Positions 3,393-46,894 of a stretch of DNA of 64,000 nucleotides are shown piece after piece. A program made the position numbers and the translations under genes. The stretch comes from Alphaproteobacteria bacterium. Lineage in GTDB: Bacteria > Pseudomonadota > Alphaproteobacteria > GCA-2731375. Every line of letters begins with the position of its first letter. Position 1 is the stretch's first letter. The stretch is from contig CBDDBZ010000038.1 in the NCBI GenBank assembly GCA_965225945.1, positions 256,001 through 320,000 on the forward strand, given 5' to 3'. The notes beneath the pieces are model-generated. The model was given only the letters and a program-made list of their open reading frames with translations. It ran no database searches and was not told the origin of the DNA.

Positions 3393-4615
3393 CATGGTAC
3401 ACGACGGCATTTACGTAGGACGTTGAAAAGGTTGTAGGATTCCCGATTCACTCCACGACGAGTCAAGAGGGAAATCATGCGAGACAACCCGATCAACGCC
3501 CTGCGTGAGACGCTACGATGCGGCTTCGCCTTTCGCAAGAGCCGTCTGGAGAGCCTTTGCGTCTTGGTCTTCGGCGTGTTCGTCGCCCGGACGGTGAACC
3601 TCTCTCACTTGGCCTGCCACTTTCCGGGGCGCGCGCGATCCAGCTCCAACTATCGGCGCCTGCAACGGTTTTTCGAGCAAGTCGATTTCGATTACGATCG
3701 CCTCGCCGAGTTCCTGGTCGCGATGATGGGGCTCCAGGCGGGGCCGTGGCGGCTGACCATGGACCGGACCAACTGGCGGCTGGGTCGCCGCGACGTCAAC
3801 ATCTTGATGATCGGCATCGTCAACCGCGCCATCGCCATTCCCGTGTGCTGGCGGGTGCTCGACAAGGCGGGCAATTCCAATACCAAGGAGCGGATCGCGA
3901 TCCTCGAACACGTCCTCCGGCTCTTCGGGGTCGACAAGATCGCCAGCCTCCTGGCCGACCGGGAATTCATCGGCGACGCCTGGCTGGCATGGTTGCAGGA
4001 AAAGGCCATCCCCTTTCACATCCGCATCCGATCCAACATCAAGATCGCCAACACGCGTGGTCGCATGGTCAAGGCGAGGGAGCTGTTTCGCGACCTCAAA
4101 CCCGGGGAAAGCCGCATCCTCTCCAACGCCAGGCGCCTCTCGGAGGCCAGAAAACCCAAGGCCAGGCCCGTCTTCGTCGCCGCGCTCCATCTCAAGACCG
4201 GCGAACTGTTGATCGTCGTGACCAACGACGCGCCCGAGGAGGCCTTGGCCATCTACGCCCAGCGCTGGCAAATCGAGACCCTCTTCGCCGCCTTGAAAAC
4301 CCGTGGCTTCAACCTCGAAGACACCCACATGACCGACCCGGAGCGCATCTCCAAGCTCACCGCCGTCCTTTCCATCACCTTCTGCTGGGCGCACAAAGTC
4401 GGCGATTGGCTCCACGAGGCCGAGCCGATCCGCCTCAAAACCCACAAAAGGATGGCAAAATCCATCTTCCGATACGGTTTCGAGTGGATAAGGCGACAGC
4501 TCGTCAATCCTATCGACAGGCGTCAAGCCATTGAGCTGATTCGTTTCCTCGTCCCCGGAAAACCACCAGTCCAGGTGCCCAGGCCAAAGCCAGCATGAAC
4601 GAGTCGTGTACTGTG
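3393..4615 (+). mobile_element. IS4-family element, copy 1 (1223 bp), no target duplication
   Basis: Ends CATGGTACACGAC / GTCGTGTACTGTG. Appears identical to 42319-43541; its own two flanks do not match. Confidence 0.9.
3477..4598 (+). CDS. IS4-family DDE transposase
   Basis: MDRTNW, LADREF and the YREK signature YAQRWQIETLFAALK. Confidence 0.9.
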   Translation: MRDNPINALRETLRCGFAFRKSRLESLCVLVFGVFVARTVNLSHLACHFPGRARSSSNYRRLQRFFEQVDFDYDRLAEFLVAMMGLQAGPWRLTMDRTNWRLGRRDVNILMIGIVNRAIAIPVCWRVLDKAGNSNTKERIAILEHVLRLFGVDKIASLLADREFIGDAWLAWLQEKAIPFHIRIRSNIKIANTRGRMVKARELFRDLKPGESRILSNARRLSEARKPKARPVFVAALHLKTGELLIVVTNDAPEEALAIYAQRWQIETLFAALKTRGFNLEDTHMTDPERISKLTAVLSITFCWAHKVGDWLHEAEPIRLKTHKRMAKSIFRYGFEWIRRQLVNPIDRRQAIELIRFLVPGKPPVQVPRPKPA

Positions 4616-39226: not shown

Positions 39227-41014
39227 ATGGCCCAAGCCTATCCGATCATCGAACATAGCTATGACGTCGTCGTGGTCGGCGCCGGCGGCTCGGGCCTGCG
39301 CGCGACCATGGGGCTGGCCCAGGCCGGCCTGTCGACGGCCTGTATCTCCAAGGTCTTCCCGACCCGCAGCCACACCGTCGCCGCCCAGGGCGGCATGGCC
39401 GCGGCGCTGGGCAACATGGGCGAGGACGACTGGCGCTGGCACATGTACGATACCGTCAAGGGGGCGGACTGGCTGGGCGATCAGGACGCCATCGAATACA
39501 TGTGCCGCGAGGCGCCGCGCGCCGTCCTGGAACTGGAGCACATGGGCCTGCCGTTCTCGCGAACCGAGGAGGGCAAGATCTACCAGCGCGCCTTCGGCGG
39601 CATGACCACGCGCTACGGCGAAGGCACGGCGCAGCGGACCTGTGCCGCCGCCGACCGCACCGGCCACGCCATCCTCCATACCCTCTACCAGCAGTCGCTG
39701 CGCTACGATTCCGACTTCTTCATCGAGTATTTCGCCCTCGACCTGATCGTCGAGGACGATGTCTGCCGGGGCGTGATGGCCTGGTCGTTGGAGGACGGCA
39801 CGATCCATCTGTTCCGGGCCCACATGGTGGTGTTGGCGACCGGCGGTTACGGGCGCTGCTACTTCTCCTGCACCTCGGCCCATACCTGCACCGGCGACGG
39901 CAACGCCATGGTGTTGCGCGCCGGCCTACCGTTGCAGGACATGGAGTTCGTGCAGTTCCACCCGACCGGGATTTACGGCGCCGGCATGCTGATCACCGAG
40001 GGCACGCGCGGCGAGGGCGCCTTCCTGACCAATTCCGAGGGCGAGCGGTTTATGGAGCGCTACGCGCCGAGCGCCAAGGACCTGGCGAGCCGCGACGTGG
40101 TCAGCCGCGCCATGACGCTCGAGATCCGCGAGGGCCGCGGCGTCGGCCCGAAGGGCGACCATATCCTGTTGCACCTCGACCATCTCGATCCCGAGGTGAT
40201 CGGGGAGCGGCTGCCCGGAATCTCCGAATCGGCGCGGATCTTCGCCGGCGTCGACGTCACGGCTGAGCCGATCCCGGTGCTGCCGACGGTGCACTACAAC
40301 ATGGGCGGCATCGCCACCAATTACCTGGGCGAGATGGTGACGCTCGAGGGCGAGGATCCGGACGCGATCGTGCCCGGCCTGATGGCGCTGGGCGAGGCCG
40401 CCTGCGTCTCGGTGCACGGGGCCAACCGGCTCGGCTCGAATTCGCTGATCGATCTCGTGGTCTTCGGCCGGGCGGCGGCGCTCCGCGCGGCCGAGGTGGT
40501 CGAGCCGGGCGCGCCGCACAGCGACCTGCCACGCGGCGCGACGGACCGCTGCCTGGCGCATTTCGACAAGCTGCGCCACGCCGACGGCGACACGCCCACC
40601 GCCCGGATCCGCGACGAAATGCAGCACACCATGCAGACCAACTGCGCCGTGTTCCGCACCGGCGAGGTGCTGGCTGACGGCATGGAGCTGATCAAGGGCG
40701 TCTGGTCGCGGATGGCGCACATCAAGGTGAGCGACCGCTCCCTGATCTGGAACTCCGATCTGGTGGAGACCTTGGAGCTCGACAATTTGCTGCGCCAGGC
40801 CCTGGTCACCATGGCCGCGGCCGGCAACCGAACCGAGAGTCGAGGGGCGCACGCCCGCGAGGACTTCCCCGATCGCGACGACGACGAATGGATGAAGCAC
40901 TCGCTCTCCTGGCTCGAGGACGACGGCACGGTCGAGATCGACTATCGCCCGGTACATACCTACACGCTCACCGACGACGTGCAGTACTTCCCGCCCAAGG
41001 CGCGGGTCTATTAG
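39227..41014 (+). CDS. sdhA: Succinate dehydrogenase flavoprotein
   Basis: [22 protein letters not shown] and [11 protein letters not shown]. Confidence 0.97.
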
Positions 41015-41032
41015 AGATCGAGGGGATCGGGA

Positions 41033-41812
41033 ATGGTTAAATTCGCGCTGCCGGCCAATTCCAAGGTCGGGAAAGGCAAGCACTACAAGGCCTCGGGCGG
41101 TGGCGAGGTTCGCCGCTTCCGGGTCTATCGCTGGAATCCCGACGATGGTGCCAACCCCAGCCTCGACACCTACGAGCTCGACATGGCGAGTTGCGGGCCG
41201 ATGGTCCTGGACGCGCTGATCAAGATCAAGAACGAGATCGACCCGACGCTGACCTTCCGCCGCTCGTGTCGCGAAGGGGTTTGCGGCTCCTGCGCCATGA
41301 ACATCGGCGGCATCAATACGCTCGCCTGCACCCTGGCCAACGCCGAATTTGAGGGCGACATCGCCATCTATCCCCTGCCGCACTTGCCGGTGATCAAGGA
41401 TCTGGTGCCGGATCTCTCGAACTTCTTCGCCCAATACGCCTCCATCGAGCCGTGGCTGAAGTCCAAGACTCCGGCGCCGCCCGACGGCGAGCGGCCGCAG
41501 AGCGAAGACGACCGCCGCAAGCTCGATGGCCTTTACGAATGCATCCTGTGTGCCTGCTGCTCGACCAGTTGCCCGAGCTACTGGTGGAACGACGAGCGCT
41601 ATCTCGGCCCGGCGATTCTGCTGCAGTCCTATCGCTGGCTGATCGACAGCCGCGACGATGCCACCGGCGAGCGGCTCGACGACCTCGAGGACCCCTTCCG
41701 GCTCTATCGCTGCCACACGATTCTGAACTGCGCCAAGGCCTGCCCGAAGAACCTCAATCCGGCCAAGGCGATCGCCGAGATCAAGAAAATGATGGTCAAG
41801 CGGCGAATCTAG
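41033..41812 (+). CDS. sdhB: Succinate dehydrogenase Fe-S subunit
   Basis: [22 protein letters not shown] and CHTILNC. Confidence 0.97.
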
Positions 41813-41839
41813 GGGCGGCGCCAGCGAATCGCGTATCGG

Positions 41840-41865
41840 GAGCCGCCCTCGGGCGGCTCTTTTTT
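41840..41865 (+). terminator. Rho-independent terminator of sdhCDAB
   Basis: GAGCCGCCC-TC-GGGCGGCTC followed by T6. Confidence 0.9.
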
Positions 41866-42318
41866 GTGTGCCTGGCATGGCGCTGATCTAGGAGATGGAA
41901 GTTCTCTACGGGCCGTAACGACCGGAACCGATAGCTGAAGGCAACTGCGTCGCCGCGAGGCGGGGTGGGGAGGAAGCGGGAGGCAAAATCTGGAGCGGAC
42001 GAACAGAAACCGGATATCAGGCCGGTGCGATGGGGTAAGCCAGCAATGGATGGCGAGGCCCGATAGTCGTTCGGACGTCGCATTGGTAAATCCGGCCGCG
42101 ACCGGAGGAAAGATCAGCGTCTTACCCAGGGAGATCTCCAGCGCTCTCGGGCGATCCGAGTAGCGAACCGGCGACGGGGAGCGATGGCGGTGGAGAAGTC
42201 AGCCGAGGCCATAGTAGGGGCCGAGAGGCGCCGAAGGGCCGAATCCGAGTAGCAAGGAGCAGTCTGGATCAACTCGATGAGCGTGGAGCGGCGGCAAGGC
42301 GGTGTTTATCAACTGGAC

Positions 42319-43541
42319 CATGGTACACGACGGCATTTACGTAGGACGTTGAAAAGGTTGTAGGATTCCCGATTCACTCCACGACGAGTCAAGAGGGAAA
42401 TCATGCGAGACAACCCGATCAACGCCCTGCGTGAGACGCTACGATGCGGCTTCGCCTTTCGCAAGAGCCGTCTGGAGAGCCTTTGCGTCTTGGTCTTCGG
42501 CGTGTTCGTCGCCCGGACGGTGAACCTCTCTCACTTGGCCTGCCACTTTCCGGGGCGCGCGCGATCCAGCTCCAACTATCGGCGCCTGCAACGGTTTTTC
42601 GAGCAAGTCGATTTCGATTACGATCGCCTCGCCGAGTTCCTGGTCGCGATGATGGGGCTCCAGGCGGGGCCGTGGCGGCTGACCATGGACCGGACCAACT
42701 GGCGGCTGGGTCGCCGCGACGTCAACATCTTGATGATCGGCATCGTCAACCGCGCCATCGCCATTCCCGTGTGCTGGCGGGTGCTCGACAAGGCGGGCAA
42801 TTCCAATACCAAGGAGCGGATCGCGATCCTCGAACACGTCCTCCGGCTCTTCGGGGTCGACAAGATCGCCAGCCTCCTGGCCGACCGGGAATTCATCGGC
42901 GACGCCTGGCTGGCATGGTTGCAGGAAAAGGCCATCCCCTTTCACATCCGCATCCGATCCAACATCAAGATCGCCAACACGCGTGGTCGCATGGTCAAGG
43001 CGAGGGAGCTGTTTCGCGACCTCAAACCCGGGGAAAGCCGCATCCTCTCCAACGCCAGGCGCCTCTCGGAGGCCAGAAAACCCAAGGCCAGGCCCGTCTT
43101 CGTCGCCGCGCTCCATCTCAAGACCGGCGAACTGTTGATCGTCGTGACCAACGACGCGCCCGAGGAGGCCTTGGCCATCTACGCCCAGCGCTGGCAAATC
43201 GAGACCCTCTTCGCCGCCTTGAAAACCCGTGGCTTCAACCTCGAAGACACCCACATGACCGACCCGGAGCGCATCTCCAAGCTCACCGCCGTCCTTTCCA
43301 TCACCTTCTGCTGGGCGCACAAAGTCGGCGATTGGCTCCACGAGGCCGAGCCGATCCGCCTCAAAACCCACAAAAGGATGGCAAAATCCATCTTCCGATA
43401 CGGTTTCGAGTGGATAAGGCGACAGCTCGTCAATCCTATCGACAGGCGTCAAGCCATTGAGCTGATTCGTTTCCTCGTCCCCGGAAAACCACCAGTCCAG
43501 GTGCCCAGGCCAAAGCCAGCATGAACGAGTCGTGTACTGTG
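42319..43541 (+). mobile_element. IS4-family element, copy 2, 9-bp TSD CAACTGGAC
   Basis: TSD at 42310-42318 and 43542-43550. Confidence 0.95.
42403..43524 (+). CDS. IS4-family transposase
   Basis: Same protein as 3477-4598. Confidence 0.92.
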   Translation: MRDNPINALRETLRCGFAFRKSRLESLCVLVFGVFVARTVNLSHLACHFPGRARSSSNYRRLQRFFEQVDFDYDRLAEFLVAMMGLQAGPWRLTMDRTNWRLGRRDVNILMIGIVNRAIAIPVCWRVLDKAGNSNTKERIAILEHVLRLFGVDKIASLLADREFIGDAWLAWLQEKAIPFHIRIRSNIKIANTRGRMVKARELFRDLKPGESRILSNARRLSEARKPKARPVFVAALHLKTGELLIVVTNDAPEEALAIYAQRWQIETLFAALKTRGFNLEDTHMTDPERISKLTAVLSITFCWAHKVGDWLHEAEPIRLKTHKRMAKSIFRYGFEWIRRQLVNPIDRRQAIELIRFLVPGKPPVQVPRPKPA

Positions 43542-44948
43542 CAACTGGACCTTTTTGACGAGGCCCTGATGAAGACGCTGCGCCCCGAGGCCTCCGGTGA
43601 CGGCGGAACCGGAACTGGACCCTGCGAGGAGCCACAAGCGATCACGGCGTTGGAACAGCAACGAGCCTTGACGCAAGACCTGATGGAACGGGTGGTGAGT
43701 TCAGCCAACCTGAGCCAAGCCTACAGGCGGGTGAAGGCGAATAAGGGGTCGGCGGGGGTGGATGGGATGACCATCCTAGACCTACGGCCCTGGCTCGCCG
43801 ATCACAAGGATGCGCTGGTGGCGCAGTGGGCCCGAGGCGGTTATCGGCCACAACCGGTGAAGGGGGTCTCGATTCCCAAGCCGGGGGGCGGGATGCGGCA
43901 ATTGGGCATCCCGACGGTGCTGGACCGTCTGGTTCAGCAAGCCATCCTGCAAGTCCTTCAGCCAATTCTCGATCCGGCTTTCTCGGGTTCGAGTTTTGGC
44001 TTCCGTCCGGGACGGAGCGCCCACGATGCTCTGGCCCAAGCAGGCAAATACGTCGCCGAAGGCCACGGGATCGTGGTCGACCTGGATTTGGAGACGTTCT
44101 TCGACCGGGTCAAGCACGACATTCTGATGTCCCGACTGGCTGGGCGCATTGGCGACAAGCGCCTGCTGCGCATCATCCGGCGTTTCCTGCAAGCGGGGAT
44201 GATGCAAGCCGGCGTCTGCATCCGGCGCCATGAGGGTACGCCGCAAGGCGGCCCGCTGTCGCCGCTGCTGGCCAATCTTCTACTGGACGACCTGGACCAG
44301 ATGCTGGAGGCGCGGGGCCATCGCTTCTGCCGTTACGCCGACGATGTGAACATCTATGTTCGCAGCCAGGCGGCGGGCGAACGGGTGATGGCCTCGGTGG
44401 CCAAATTCCTCCAAGGCAGGTTGCATCTTCAGATCAACCAGGAGAAAAGTGCCGTCGCTCCGGTCTGGGAACGCAGGTTCCTCGGCCACCGACTTTTGCC
44501 GGATGGATCGCTCGGCATTGCGCCCCAAAGCCTGCGGCGGGCGAAGCAACGGGTTCGCGAAATCACCCGGCGCAACCGGGGCGTCAGCCTCGCGCGCATG
44601 GTCGGCGAGCTGAACAGCTTCCTCGCCGGTTGGGTGACGTATTTCCGCCATGCCCGTTGCGGGAGACAACTACGGCGTCTCGACGGATGGATCCGCCGAA
44701 AACTGCGCTGTGTCCGGCTCAAGCAATGCAAGCGCACCAAGGCGCAAGCGGATTTTCTGCGAAGCCTTGGGGTGCCCGAATGGCGGGCATGGATCTTGGC
44801 TCTCTCCGGCAAGGGCTGGTGGCGCAAGTCCCTCAGCCCCCAAGCCACCGAGGCCATGACCCTGGCTTGGTTCGACGGCCAGGGGCTCATCCCCCTAGCC
44901 GACAGGTTCCGAGCGTTGCAACTAACCGGAAACCGCCATGGTACGTAG
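43521..44948 (+). CDS. ltrA: Group II intron reverse transcriptase/maturase without an En domain; the first 7 codons come from the IS
   Basis: GSAGVDG, RQLGIPTVLDR, GTPQGGPLSPLL, RYADD and domain X. The native start is 42277 (MSVERRQGGVYQLD). Confidence 0.88.
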   Translation: MNESCTVQLDLFDEALMKTLRPEASGDGGTGTGPCEEPQAITALEQQRALTQDLMERVVSSANLSQAYRRVKANKGSAGVDGMTILDLRPWLADHKDALVAQWARGGYRPQPVKGVSIPKPGGGMRQLGIPTVLDRLVQQAILQVLQPILDPAFSGSSFGFRPGRSAHDALAQAGKYVAEGHGIVVDLDLETFFDRVKHDILMSRLAGRIGDKRLLRIIRRFLQAGMMQAGVCIRRHEGTPQGGPLSPLLANLLLDDLDQMLEARGHRFCRYADDVNIYVRSQAAGERVMASVAKFLQGRLHLQINQEKSAVAPVWERRFLGHRLLPDGSLGIAPQSLRRAKQRVREITRRNRGVSLARMVGELNSFLAGWVTYFRHARCGRQLRRLDGWIRRKLRCVRLKQCKRTKAQADFLRSLGVPEWRAWILALSGKGWWRKSLSPQATEAMTLAWFDGQGLIPLADRFRALQLTGNRHGT

Positions 44949-45025
44949 AACGTATGCCCGGTGGTGTGGGAGGCGGGAACCGCGAGGAACCCGCCTACCC
45001 GATTGGTTCTTCGCGGATTGAATTA

Positions 45026-46050
45026 GGCTCAATTCGTGAATTGTATGCGTCACCTTGTTACGGCGGCGGCGAGGCAGGCTCGGTCATTGGCGCCGGGGGC
45101 GAGGCCGACGAGGTGGAACCAGCTCAGGTAGTTGTCCAGATAGCGGGTGGCGATGCCGCGGCGGGGACGCAGGAAGTCCTTCAACCGGCTGTGGCGGCTG
45201 TTCACCGTCTGCACATGCAGATCGCCCCGAACCCGTTCCCCCATCGAGCGGTTGAGTGCTTCGTGGCTCACCCCGAGCGCGGCGGCGCACGGTGGGTAGC
45301 TCGCGCCGCCGTCGGAGACCAGCAGGGCGTCCTTCGCGACCACCGGGTCGAGGGCAGCCGTGAGCGCCGCCGCATCGACCCTGGGCAGCACCGCGCTGAC
45401 CGTCGTTCCGCTCCGGTCCGCCGCCATGAGAACCGGTACCTGCTCGCGCGAGAGGCCGCGCTTCTTCGCCTTGCCGCCCCGCCGCCGTGCCTTGCGCCCC
45501 AGCCCGCGCGCGCCCTTCCGGCTCTCCAGGACGTAGGTCTCGTCCGCTTCCACGATCCCCTTGAGCACCTCCGAATCGCTTCGCGCCGCCGCCAGAAACC
45601 GGTGACGCCAGCGGAACGCCGTGCTCACCGCCACGTCGCAGCGCGCCGCCGAGGCCTTCACCGTCTCCCCCTTCGCCAGCGACGCCCCGAACGACAGCCA
45701 GCGTTCCTTGTGGTGCAAGCCCGACAGCGGCGTACCGCTCAGCGCGTTGAAGGTCCTGCCGCAGCCCTTGCACTGGTAGCGCCGCAGACCCCGCGCCATA
45801 CCGCGCGAAACCGCCCCTTCGCTCGCGCAGTGCGGACAGCGCCGGGCCTCGTCCACACCAAGCTCGATCGCGGCCTTCGATGCCTCGCCCTCGCTCCGGC
45901 CCGACAGCACCGCGAGCGCCTCGCGCCGCTACGCGCGCGTCAGCCCGCGCGCCGCCGAAAGCCACACCTGGAAACCCTTGCTGTCCATAACCCAACCTCC
46001 TGACGTTCCAGGCACTCTATCACTAATGCATACAATTCACGAATTGAGCC
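45026..46050 (-). mobile_element. IS1595-family element with perfect 23-bp IRs and an 8-bp TSD TTGAATTA
   Basis: GGCTCAATTCGTGAATTGTATGC and its reverse complement at the ends; TSD at 45018-45025 and 46051-46058. Confidence 0.92.
45050..45988 (-). pseudogene. IS1595 transposase with a premature TAG at codon 20
   Basis: MDSKGFQVWLSAARGLTRA*RREAL; CPHC..CKGC zinc ribbon, VEADETY, SDG, and TVNSRHSRLK. Confidence 0.8.
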
Positions 46051-46894
46051 TTGAATTAAGCGTAGGTTGCCCAAGTAATGCCGCGTGGTACTCGAGGCAG
46101 TTGGGACATATGTGCCCCAATAAATCGACGTTTCTCAAGCAAGACGACGACGCACTATCAATTGTGACACACAATCCGATCGGGCAATCGATTACTGGAA
46201 CAGGAAATAAACGCGACAATCAGCGCCGCCCCGGCGAAACACCGTGGAAAGGTCATAGGTGAATCCCGCTTGCCGCAAAAGCTTTCCTCGGTTGTCCGGA
46301 TAAACGTTGACGATGCCGATATGCCCGATCAGGTCGTTGTCCGTGCCGAAAAACGCTTTGGGCAAGGACGAGAGGTGGCCCGCGAGTTGTGCCGACAGGT
46401 CTAGCTTTTTTATCACTTGGCGGGCCGTCCTAGCGCCGGCCCTAGCGGCGGTCCGCGAAACGCCGCGCTTGACCACGTGTTTCGCCAAAGTGCGCGTTCC
46501 GCGGGTTAGGGCAAAATCCACGGCGACTTCGGTCAATTGTTCGACCACCGGGCCGCCGTCGTCGTATTCCCACAGGGTGACTTGCAAAGTCAGGGGCTGC
46601 GACGGACCGGTCCACAGCCGACGTCCTTTTCCGGCGCGCTTGCTGCCGTTTTTCAGCAACGTCGACGTCCTTTTCCGGCGCGCTTGCTGCCGTTTTTCAT
46701 GTTTTTGTAGTATTTGCCGCGGCCTGGCAACGTCGAACTGTACGTGCTTCCGTTTGCGTCGACGACGACGACGCTGGCGAAAATTTCATTGGCCGGATAG
46801 AGCGCGCTGTCCTTCTGCACCTTGCGGCAGTACAGCCCCTGATAAGTCAGTGTGTATGGTGTATCGCACCCGGTTCCTTGGACACAAGTTTGTC

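Follow-up and report, generated by a model that had tools for sequence, protein, structure and literature searches.

The locus described here raises the question of whether an insertion sequence (IS) that has entered a group II intron also rescues the reverse transcriptase (RT) it disrupts. It lies in the window, a 64,000-nucleotide stretch of an alphaproteobacterial genome, where an IS4-family element cuts the intron-encoded RT gene and ends in an ATG that is in frame with the rest of that gene. A preliminary description read the arrangement as a rescue of the RT and proposed a possibly active composite element. Neither proposal is supported: an IS that is actively expanding has probably jumped, very recently and incidentally, into a group IIC intron of which the genome has three copies, and the composite is most likely ordinary decay, with no positive support for function. 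The intron and its upstream neighbours are as follows.

39227 to 41011: flavoprotein subunit, upstream of the sdhB-like gene (Pfam FAD_binding_2 and Succ_DH_flav_C).
41033 to 41812, plus strand: sdhB-like gene, iron-sulfur subunit of succinate dehydrogenase/fumarate reductase (Pfam Fer2_3 and Fer4).
41838 to 41865, plus strand: terminator-like hairpin (10 pairs) with T-run, which is the 5' exon/target motif of the intron.
41866 (GTGTG) to 45003 (..CCCGAT), plus strand: group II intron assigned to class C (IIC), exon junction TTTTTT/TGGTTC.
41866 to 42318, plus strand: intron 5' segment with domains I-III and the start of domain IV, AGGAA at 41971-41975.
44931 to 45003, plus strand: domains V and VI (Rfam DV/DVI match, 27.4 bits against a gathering score of 40).

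The intron proper comprises 1906 nt and carries a 1223-bp IS, giving a composite of ~3.1 kb. A hairpin at 41838-41861 followed by six T residues directly abuts its 5' end, so the intron sits after the terminator of the sdhB-like gene. All three intron copies of this genome are preceded by a hairpin and T-rich tail, as is the first copy of an intron array in the sister genome G001. Passages of PMC1702495 describe group IIC introns as positioned directly 3' of intrinsic-terminator-like stem-loops, with a conserved AGGAA in the epsilon-prime bulge region, a CGC in place of the AGC triad in the basal stem of domain V (DV), and a distal stem in DV that lacks 2 bp relative to IIA and IIB introns.

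The Rfam D1-D4 models match the 5' segment at 41949-42120 (RF02001, 133 bits, E 2.5e-28) and 42160-42239 (RF01998, 51 bits), and the AGGAA at 41971-41975 falls on the identical motif in the RF02001 consensus, so that this group IIC feature is recognized by its alignment position. CGC occupies the DV triad position, with CCGCC opposite GAGCC of the model in a cmscan alignment that scores 27.4 bits and is thus below the gathering threshold of 40. The predicted DV is 34 nt long in one single-sequence minimum-free-energy fold; its basal and distal stems, of 6 bp each, flank an internal loop, and a triloop caps the distal one. The region 44931-45003 folds with a z of -3.28, contains a candidate branch A at 44997, and holds the RT stop codon within DV. 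Domains I-III and V-VI are identical to those of the other intron copies of this genome, and over 454 nt the 5' segment matches copy B with 100% identity. In group IIC introns, EBS2/IBS2 is absent and the IBS1 pairing is short. The intron RT/maturase matches only RVT_1 and GIIM and lacks a C-terminal endonuclease domain, as in IIC RTs. On these sequence features, the element is a class C group II intron; the Rfam domains, terminator site, CGC, AGGAA, and RT type bear out the class given in the preliminary description, and its boundaries and exon junction also stand. Three further features define the inserted element.

42319 to 43541, plus strand: IS4-family insertion sequence of 1223 bp, inverted ends at 42319-42331 and 43529-43541.
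42310 to 42318 (left) and 43542 to 43550 (right), plus strand: 9-bp target-site duplication CAACTGGAC.
42403 to 43524, plus strand: DDE transposase of 373 aa (PF01609, E 1.4e-16; NF033591 IS4 family, 264.1 bits against a cutoff of 152).

The IS ends, CATGGTACACGAC and GTCGTGTACTGTG, match as inverted repeats at 11 of 13 positions by reading. This genome holds 46 full-length copies of the element and 26 partial matches, and an exact 9-bp duplication surrounds 41 of the 46. The transposase signature YAQRWQIETLFAALK, read in the 373-aa translation, has the form Y-x2-R-x3-E-x6-K, which in the IS4 family follows the third acidic residue. Judged by its DDE model, signature, inverted repeats, and fixed 9-bp duplication, the insert is an IS4-family IS. 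The earlier family assignment and duplication therefore stand (NF033591, PF01609), while the left boundary moves to 42319, one base further left than by-eye reading had placed it, and a C precedes every copy. A logo of 41 sites gives the target preference TTTAT-N9-ATAAA, the left half of which fits the intron site. The copy in the intron shows no differences from the query copy set, so its insertion is very recent.

A high-copy exact repeat of this kind could also have been mis-joined into the intron during assembly, across the 46-copy repeat, and among the contigs listed, those of other runs bridge neither junction. However, the IS is flanked by a perfect 9-bp duplication of intron sequence, and the intron resumes exactly on either side of it, which a chimeric join would not produce. 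In addition, 46 identical 1.2-kb repeats are placed within 39 contigs, indicating that repeats are generally resolved. An assembly artefact is extremely improbable, and the insertion is treated here as real. Its effect on the RT gene involves two reading frames.

42277 to 42363, plus strand: native RT start and remnant of the native ORF, which now reaches a stop within the IS after 28 codons (by reading).
43521 to 44948, plus strand: composite RT ORF of 475 aa, opened by an ATG that the IS supplies and that overlaps the stop of the transposase (ATGA).

The native start, ATG 42277, reads MSVERRQGGVYQLD and is the start used across the family. Relatives are mostly 479 aa at 98-100% coverage among the matches listed, and an alignment of 19 rows to the native RT holds 18 relatives, all opening with M[SGV][VM][EK]..QG, which confirms this start; the remaining row is the composite ORF of the window itself. 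The IS inserted 42 nt downstream of this codon and is oriented like the RT. At its right end, the transposase stop TGA (43522-43524) overlaps ATG 43521, and the ORF that begins there reads MNESCTV into QLDLFDE, replacing 11 N-terminal residues by 7, just as first described. The 11 residues lost are conserved among relatives. The earlier statement that all RT motifs survive also holds: the composite protein retains RVT_1 over 1-205 of 205 positions, GIIM, YADD, and TIGR04416 over positions 2-352 of 353 (395.6 bits, cutoff 300). GsI-IIC RT, the best solved relative (E 2.3e-137), aligns to residues 58-474, and the next PDB matches are IIC maturases. The swapped residues therefore lie in an N-terminal extension, conserved and ~55 aa long in this RT subfamily, and outside the catalytic core.

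Rescue of the RT by the IS is nonetheless unsupported. The exit ATG, part of an ATGA that precedes six open codons, is kept in all 46 full-length copies, so what sets this copy apart is the frame match alone. Its probability is 1/3 given the orientation, as the preliminary description had estimated, and 1/6 when orientation is counted. ORFs of at least 100 aa begin at the exit ATG in 9/41 copies in a genome of 66% G+C; in the two longest others (304 and 361 aa, sites C15 and C32), the IS lies upstream of a gene's own start. Frame calls for in-frame fusions, made by ORF length and GC3 over the 41 copies with a duplication, are too noisy for a reliable count.

The reading as an active composite would have read-through from sdhB produce a 3.1-kb intron RNA, on which transposase-coupled re-initiation at the ATG yields a working RT/maturase; the RNA would then splice and carry the IS to new terminators. 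The fused ORF is intact with all RT and maturase models matched, and the ATGA overlap of transposase stop and RT start is a classic arrangement for translational coupling. The ribozyme domains I-III and V-VI are unaltered, and no terminator-like site was found on the plus strand within the IS. Against this stand the loss of the 11 conserved residues and the upstream sequence of ATG 43521, in which reading finds no Shine-Dalgarno-like purine run. A further objection comes from the RNA around the native start codon, where the IS separates the following elements.

42271 to 42283, plus strand: 5' strand of helix 1, containing the AUG; partner at 43639-43651, beyond the IS.
42299 to 42307, plus strand: 5' strand of helix 3, the lower stem of a long hairpin arm; partner at 43573-43581, beyond the IS.
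43573 to 43651, plus strand: downstream part of the junction, with the helix 3 3' strand (43573-43581), helices 4-6 forming the second arm (43583-43629), and the helix 1 3' strand (43639-43651).

These strands belong to a three-way RNA junction, conserved and covarying, that extends from the RT start codon to codon 55. The junction comprises 37 pairs, and 92.0% of alignment cells are paired, compared with 30-41% when the partners are slid. Compensatory changes occur at 19 pairs, and none of 500 shuffles reaches the covariation score. Helix 1 contributes 12 pairs (7 with compensatory changes, 94.6% of cells paired) and helix 3 contributes 9 (7 compensatory). The long hairpin arm appears in 15/16 single-sequence folds, which were used for its apical stem since the alignment register varies by subgroup and RNAalifold makes no call there. 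[quoted passage not shown] That the coding sequence doubles as a three-way junction explains the conservation of the ~55-aa N-terminal extension.

The 21 of 37 pairs that form helices 1 and 3 now straddle the IS. The preliminary view that the IS lies in domain IV, where the ribozyme core may still fold, is correct as to the domain, but the site is not a neutral ORF loop: the insertion splits a conserved, covarying junction. Some features would soften the damage. The target duplication re-creates the apical stem-loop of the long hairpin downstream of the IS, the relative L062 tolerates 24 extra nt in the same arm, and long-range closure of the RNA across the IS is not impossible, because domain IV already closes across the ORF. 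Cargo of such size depresses mobility in one tested system, Ll.LtrB, where passages of PMC8524655 report that domain IVb cargo reduces splicing and retrohoming and that cargo of >600 bp was not recovered in P. putida. Nor does the host select for splicing, because a IIC intron sits behind a terminator, outside host genes.

The copy number of the composite also bears on its activity. As a check, the preliminary description looked to other genomic copies of the intron with and without the IS, and named a single occurrence of the composite as one of three observations that would count against it. Two further copies are present, both with the IS site empty, and the composite gives a single full-length match in this genome, none among 30 related genomes, and no hits to either IS/intron junction in metagenome contigs. 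The insertion is too recent for this single copy number to tell much on mobility. With one copy, a split junction, and every intron copy interrupted, the activity of the composite is improbable overall, and the read-through and coupling scheme set out above is quite unlikely. A 3.1-kb live hybrid, in which a IIC retroelement splices and retrohomes behind terminators with a complete DDE transposon as cargo and makes RT only upon transposase translation, is very improbable.

The three intron copies carry 1, 2, and 3 mobile-element insertions, or 6 in about 5.7 kb. Copy A, at the window locus, has one. Copy B has two, a 4141-bp IS21-like element and a 748-bp element, and copy C has three, two 1135-bp DDE_3 elements and one of 1451 bp. 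Each of the interrupting elements has 19-67 near-full-length copies in the genome. The intron family in this genome is being destroyed by mobile elements. In the sister genome G001, 12 intron copies (91-95% identity) are uninterrupted, and the IS itself is absent. Sequencing runs containing this DNA include some labelled sponge metagenome.

A different functional outcome would be an RT without its intron. The composite intron RNA would be dead, and the fused RT, or a shorter form from ATG 43569 or 43683, would be made off IS-driven transcripts and either work as an RT on its own or serve other intron RNAs in trans. The RT core downstream of the IS is complete; by reading, GAGG lies 5 nt upstream of ATG 43569; and M59 is invariant and matches the start of the solved GsI-IIC RT. 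M21, in contrast, is not kept as Met in relatives. RNA-library contigs cover 43968-44182 and 44231-44551 with no differences, although this sequence is common to three copies and is not proof of transcription. The ribozymes of both other intron copies are broken, which leaves no obvious RNA partner, and no sigma-70-like promoter sites were found in 41700-45100. Such an orphan RT is unlikely.

Four runs contributed contigs over 41000-45300, two labelled as RNA (X14, X17) and two of unlabelled kind (X3, X12); all are assembled contigs and provide no basis for judging splicing or expression. Within this interval, no contig joins 41865 to 45004, which in assembled contigs is uninformative on splicing. 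X14 contigs leave 41864-42295 uncovered, which is likewise uninformative on expression. RNA-library contigs that leave the IS end carry the flanks of other IS copies, and at this locus none of these assembled contigs extends past the right end of the IS to the RT. An X3 contig that joins 42309 to 43542 was considered as an empty allele of the locus and rejected, since it carries the three base differences of copy C and so derives from another intron copy.

The preferred reading thus remains a recent, incidental insertion. During its expansion, the IS took a site fitting the left half of its target preference, in RT orientation. Its fixed ATGA end and six open codons, together with a 1-in-3 frame match, yield an ORF that keeps the entire RT core. 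The same event parts the strands of two helices, namely helix 1 (12 pairs, start codon among them) and the hairpin's lower stem (9 pairs). The element is most likely crippled, or at best weakly active, because the conserved junction taken as D4a is split. Ribosomes that terminate and reinitiate at ATGA, or that start at internal ATGs, may still make small amounts of protein from the fused ORF, as a by-product and not a rescue.

The locus provides a clean and datable record of how one mobile element destroys another amid IS expansion in a symbiont-type genome, which helps annotation and is unsurprising. Two by-products are a well-supported RNA junction that sequesters the start codon, within the 55-aa N-terminal extension conserved in a widespread subfamily of IIC RTs, and a natural, ready-made construct for insertion tolerance of the IIC intron D4a region. 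A literature search of limited scope in papers and terms found no description of a working IS-bearing group II intron. An active composite would be the first natural case of a DDE transposon carried by a group II intron; were it a live hybrid, RT dependence on transposase translation would tie the activity of both mobile elements together.

Among known systems, the intron most resembles the IIC introns B.h.I1 of Bacillus halodurans, GsI-IIC, and the Eubacterium rectale IIC retroelement. It shares their terminator-hairpin sites (3/3 here, plus G001), CGC triad, AGGAA, and RT/maturase without an endonuclease domain, with GsI-IIC RT the closest solved relative. The 5' end of B.h.I1, as seen in primer sequences of PMC1702495, is almost the same as GTGTGCCTGGCATGG here. 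Unlike these introns, its RT has a ~55-aa conserved extension whose coding sequence doubles as a start-codon three-way junction, and this copy bears a 1223-bp IS inside that junction.

IS-driven fragmentation is a general trend among bacterial group II introns (passages of PMC2504315, citing Dai and Zimmerly), and the locus shares with such fragmented introns an IS-interrupted copy, a genome rich in mobile DNA, and sibling copies that are interrupted too. It differs in that an IS-borne ATG leaves a full-length RT ORF and only the D4a-like ribozyme region is touched. Engineered Ll.LtrB targetrons similarly hold ~1 kb of foreign DNA within domain IV, but in passages of PMC8524655 the cargo sits in IVb, off the site bound by the IEP, which is often provided separately. 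The IS at this locus occupies a structured, start-codon-proximal region and displaces the native start.

As in bacterial operons with ATGA coupling, an upstream stop overlaps a downstream start; there the overlap is conserved and selected, whereas here a fixed IS end meets a random target frame. IStrons are group I ribozymes that recur as a conserved, multi-copy unit that splices. The likeness to IStrons such as BcISt1, a group I intron with an IS200/IS605-type element mentioned in PMC2504315, is that a self-splicing ribozyme and a transposase-bearing IS form a unit. The unit at this locus instead joins a group II intron to an IS4-family element and is found once.

In the window (C38:256001-320000 of genome G000) the intron lies downstream of an sdhA/sdhB-like gene pair and is divided by an IS4-family element, and its surroundings are arranged as follows:

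up to 41812, sdhA/sdhB-like gene pair, upstream of the intron
41838-41861, terminator-like hairpin of 10 pairs followed by a T-run, between the sdhB-like gene and the intron
41866 (GTGTGCCTGGCATGG) to 45003 (..CCTACCCGAT), group II intron, its 5' end directly adjoining the T-run
42319-43541, IS element of 1223 bp, between the two intron parts
42403-43524, transposase ORF of 373 aa, the sole ORF of the IS

Rfam D1-D4 models match the intron at 41949-42120 (133.2 bits, E 2.5e-28) and 42160-42239 (51 bits). A DV/DVI model reaches 27.4 bits at 44931-45003, under its gathering score of 40, and this segment folds into two hairpins (z -3.28). The composite ORF (43521-44948, 475 aa) contains RVT_1 over all 205 profile positions together with GIIM, and scores 395.6 bits against the group II RT/maturase model TIGR04416. 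Removal of the IS and one duplication copy leaves a 1906-nt intron with an RT of 479 aa, the length of most of the best 120 RT relatives in the protein collection (coverage 98-100%). The solved GsI-IIC RT aligns to RT residues 58-474 (E 2.3e-137).

On its sequence features the intron is filed as group IIC, features given in PMC1702495 being checked singly: its target is a terminator, the cmscan alignment contains the CGC triad, AGGAA lies at 41971-41975, and the RT has no endonuclease domain and finds its best solved relatives among IIC enzymes. PMC1702495 also gives a shorter DV and a lack of EBS2 for this class; the single-sequence MFE fold here yields a DV of 34 nt, its 6-bp basal stem and 6-bp distal stem separated by an internal loop and capped by a triloop. 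An IS1595-family element (45025-46051) begins 21 nt past the intron 3' end; its inverted ends match perfectly over 24 nt, its 286-aa transposase is encoded on the minus strand, and its very high depth in sequencing-run contigs marks it as another high-copy IS.

The 373-aa transposase matches DDE_Tnp_1 and the NCBIfam IS4-family model NF033591 (264 bits, cutoff 152), and contains Y-x2-R-x3-E-x6-K (YAQRWQIETLFAALK), the IS4-family signature. Genome-wide BLAST recovers 46 full-length and 26 partial matches. Flank alignment places a C before every one of the 46, which moves the left end to 42319, 1 bp outward from the boundary implied by the preliminary description. An exact 9-bp duplication surrounds 41 of the 46 (in the window CAACTGGAC, 42310-42318 and 43542-43550), and these 41 sites define a palindromic preference of roughly TTTAT-N9-ATAAA, whose left half fits the intron site (GTTTAT followed by CAACTGGAC). 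A second copy within the window (3393-4615; C38:259393-260615 in contig coordinates) is among the five without a matching duplication, which could reflect recombination between IS copies. Four further copies (C15:19896, C31:180463, C33:150029 and C39:565397, on other contigs of the same genome) share near-identical targets, CCAATCGCC or CCGACCGCC and then ATAAA..GGCGA; these are either a repeated hot-spot sequence or insertions into another repeat family.

The sequence claims of the preliminary description were all borne out. The native RT start at 42277 (MSVERRQGGVYQLD..) is real, since 18 relatives, which with the composite ORF of the window make up the 19 rows aligned to the native RT, share the N-terminus M-[SGV]-[VM]-[EK]-x-Q-Q-G. 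The transposase stop TGA (43522-43524) overlaps an ATG at 43521, from which ATG AAC GAG TCG TGT ACT GTG runs into CAA CTG GAC in the RT frame, so that 7 residues replace 11 and the protein is unaltered from Q12 onward. The further proposal that this exit ATG rescues the disrupted RT is not supported. Each of the 46 full-length copies carries ATGA with six open codons after it, apart from a Ser-to-Pro substitution in one and a base substitution immediately ahead of the ATG in three; the feature thus belongs to the IS and not to this insertion, and what this site contributes is the frame (1 in 3) and the orientation (1 in 2) alone. Exit-ATG ORFs of at least 100 aa occur at 9 of 41 IS sites in this 66% G+C genome; apart from the composite, the longest two (304 and 361 aa) come from IS copies located upstream of a gene's own start. 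The composite ORF results from an invariant IS terminus meeting the RT in a chance frame, a fusion that is neat and probably meaningless. A IIC intron lies outside genes, where splicing is of no benefit to the host, and selection therefore offers no path to a rescue.

The preliminary description had also placed the IS in the ORF-bearing region of domain IV; rather than lying in a neutral loop there, it splits a conserved three-way junction around the start codon, predicted by RNAalifold from an alignment of this region in 15-16 related introns (65-91% RT identity). The predicted elements are:

42271-42283 with 43639-43651, helix 1, 12 pairs, containing the AUG
42288-42295, helix 2, a 2-bp hairpin
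42299-42307 with 43573-43581, helix 3, 9 pairs
43583-43629, helices 4-6, the second arm

Pairing holds in 92.0% of 586 cells, versus 30.2-40.6% with the 3' partners slid by 1-3 columns, and the covariation score is 0.432 versus at most 0.114 when slid, a comparison biased toward the junction because the same alignment served to predict it; none of 500 shuffles attains this score. Compensatory changes affect 19 of 37 junction pairs; more weight falls on the 7 such pairs in each of helices 1 and 3. In single-sequence folds, helix 3 is the base of one long hairpin with an apical stem in 15 of 16 introns, the exception being L058. The IS lies between C42318 and C43551, within the 5' strand of the apical stem; the duplication restores the apical stem-loop downstream of the IS, and an extra 1232 nt now separates the two strands of helix 1 (12 pairs) and likewise those of the lower stem (9 pairs). 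The first 55 codons are conserved though outside the catalytic core, because the junction is encoded there. It would correspond to D4a, and the equivalent element of Ll.LtrB holds the start codon.

The genome contains three copies of this intron, each preceded by a hairpin and T-rich tail:

copy A, the window copy, with one IS
copy B, C24:70408-77223, minus strand, uninterrupted at the window insertion site, RT cut twice
copy C, C38:400694-406336, uninterrupted at the window insertion site, whole native RT ORF kept

Copy B is cut by a 4141-bp IS21-like element (IstA/IstB domains) and a 748-bp element. The RT of copy C has three amino-acid differences, and three insertions interrupt the ribozyme of this copy, at intron positions 26 and 157 and, directly past the stop codon, in DV; they comprise two 1135-bp DDE_3 elements and one element of 1451 bp. 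The elements in copies B and C have 19 to 67 near-full-length copies each. Six insertions in ~5.7 kb of intron DNA compare with ~0.16 expected at random, by our own arithmetic from roughly 170 such element copies over 6.27 Mb; this excess fits insertions persisting where they are harmless.

The 748-bp element (C24:70999-71746 and 66 other places, 67 near-full-length copies) has visible terminal inverted repeats and no ORF above about 100 aa, and looks like a non-autonomous, MITE-like element. At native RT codon 107 (window 43828), copies A and B have Trp; copy C, the sister genome G001 and at least 90% of relatives have Leu. A derived allele at two genomic sites means either that it allowed mobility or that it was mobilised in trans. 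A second group II intron family also has three copies (C9:30134-31984, C38:209782-212395 and C39:97690-98771), at 69-74% identity across the matched parts of the RT and 5' region. Its N-terminus is similar (MSGERRNVQYSL..), and the RT ends of the C38 and C39 copies are altered or truncated.

Among 30 related genomes there is no full-length match to the composite. G001, of the same genus, holds 12 uninterrupted intron copies (91-95% identity) and no copy of the IS4-family element; another relative, G002, has an identical (100%) IS and, elsewhere, a relative of the intron at 78-81%. Neither junction sequence has an exact match in a metagenome contig collection from which the window's own genome records may be absent. 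Among the sequencing runs containing the stretch are RNA libraries and runs labelled sponge metagenome, all in the form of assembled contigs. In the four aligned to the locus no contig links 41865 with 45004 and no RNA-library contig passes from the IS right end into the RT, which as contig data carries no weight for or against splicing or a transposase-RT transcript.

In G001, array L104 (G001:C1:314100-320150) consists of three identical 1907-nt intron copies head to tail with no spacer, joined as ..CCTACCCGAT directly to GTGTGCC.., with a terminator hairpin ahead of the first; a second array (G001:C7:4924-8738) has two copies. Each further copy seems to use the DVI hairpin, at the 3' end of the intron itself, as its target. 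In L086, an alphaproteobacterial MAG contig, the match to a related RT extends over 2107 bp but comprises 460 residues, an excess of about 700 bp suggestive of a further interrupted intron, this one in an unrelated genome.

In sum, the IS4-family element has recently entered one of three sibling introns, all of which are being struck, at a target that it prefers, and it splits the conserved, predicted RNA junction. Maturase binding and RNP assembly would be impaired, and the 3.1-kb RNA would arise only through terminator read-through and splice poorly if at all. Any RT translated from the exit ATG would be a by-product, as would RT begun at the internal ATGs 43569 (with GAGG lying 5 nt upstream) or 43683 (the invariant M59). 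Because the insertion is so young, its copy number does not rule out mobility, and a slim chance is left for an active composite.

PMC2504315 names IS insertion among the causes of the fragmentation that typifies bacterial group II introns, and mentions the IStrons, working ribozyme-IS composites known for group I introns. PMC8524655 describes one engineered system in which domain IV cargo reduces splicing and retrohoming. IStrons recur as units, whereas the window composite does not; it is a further instance of the already known interruption of group II introns by IS elements.
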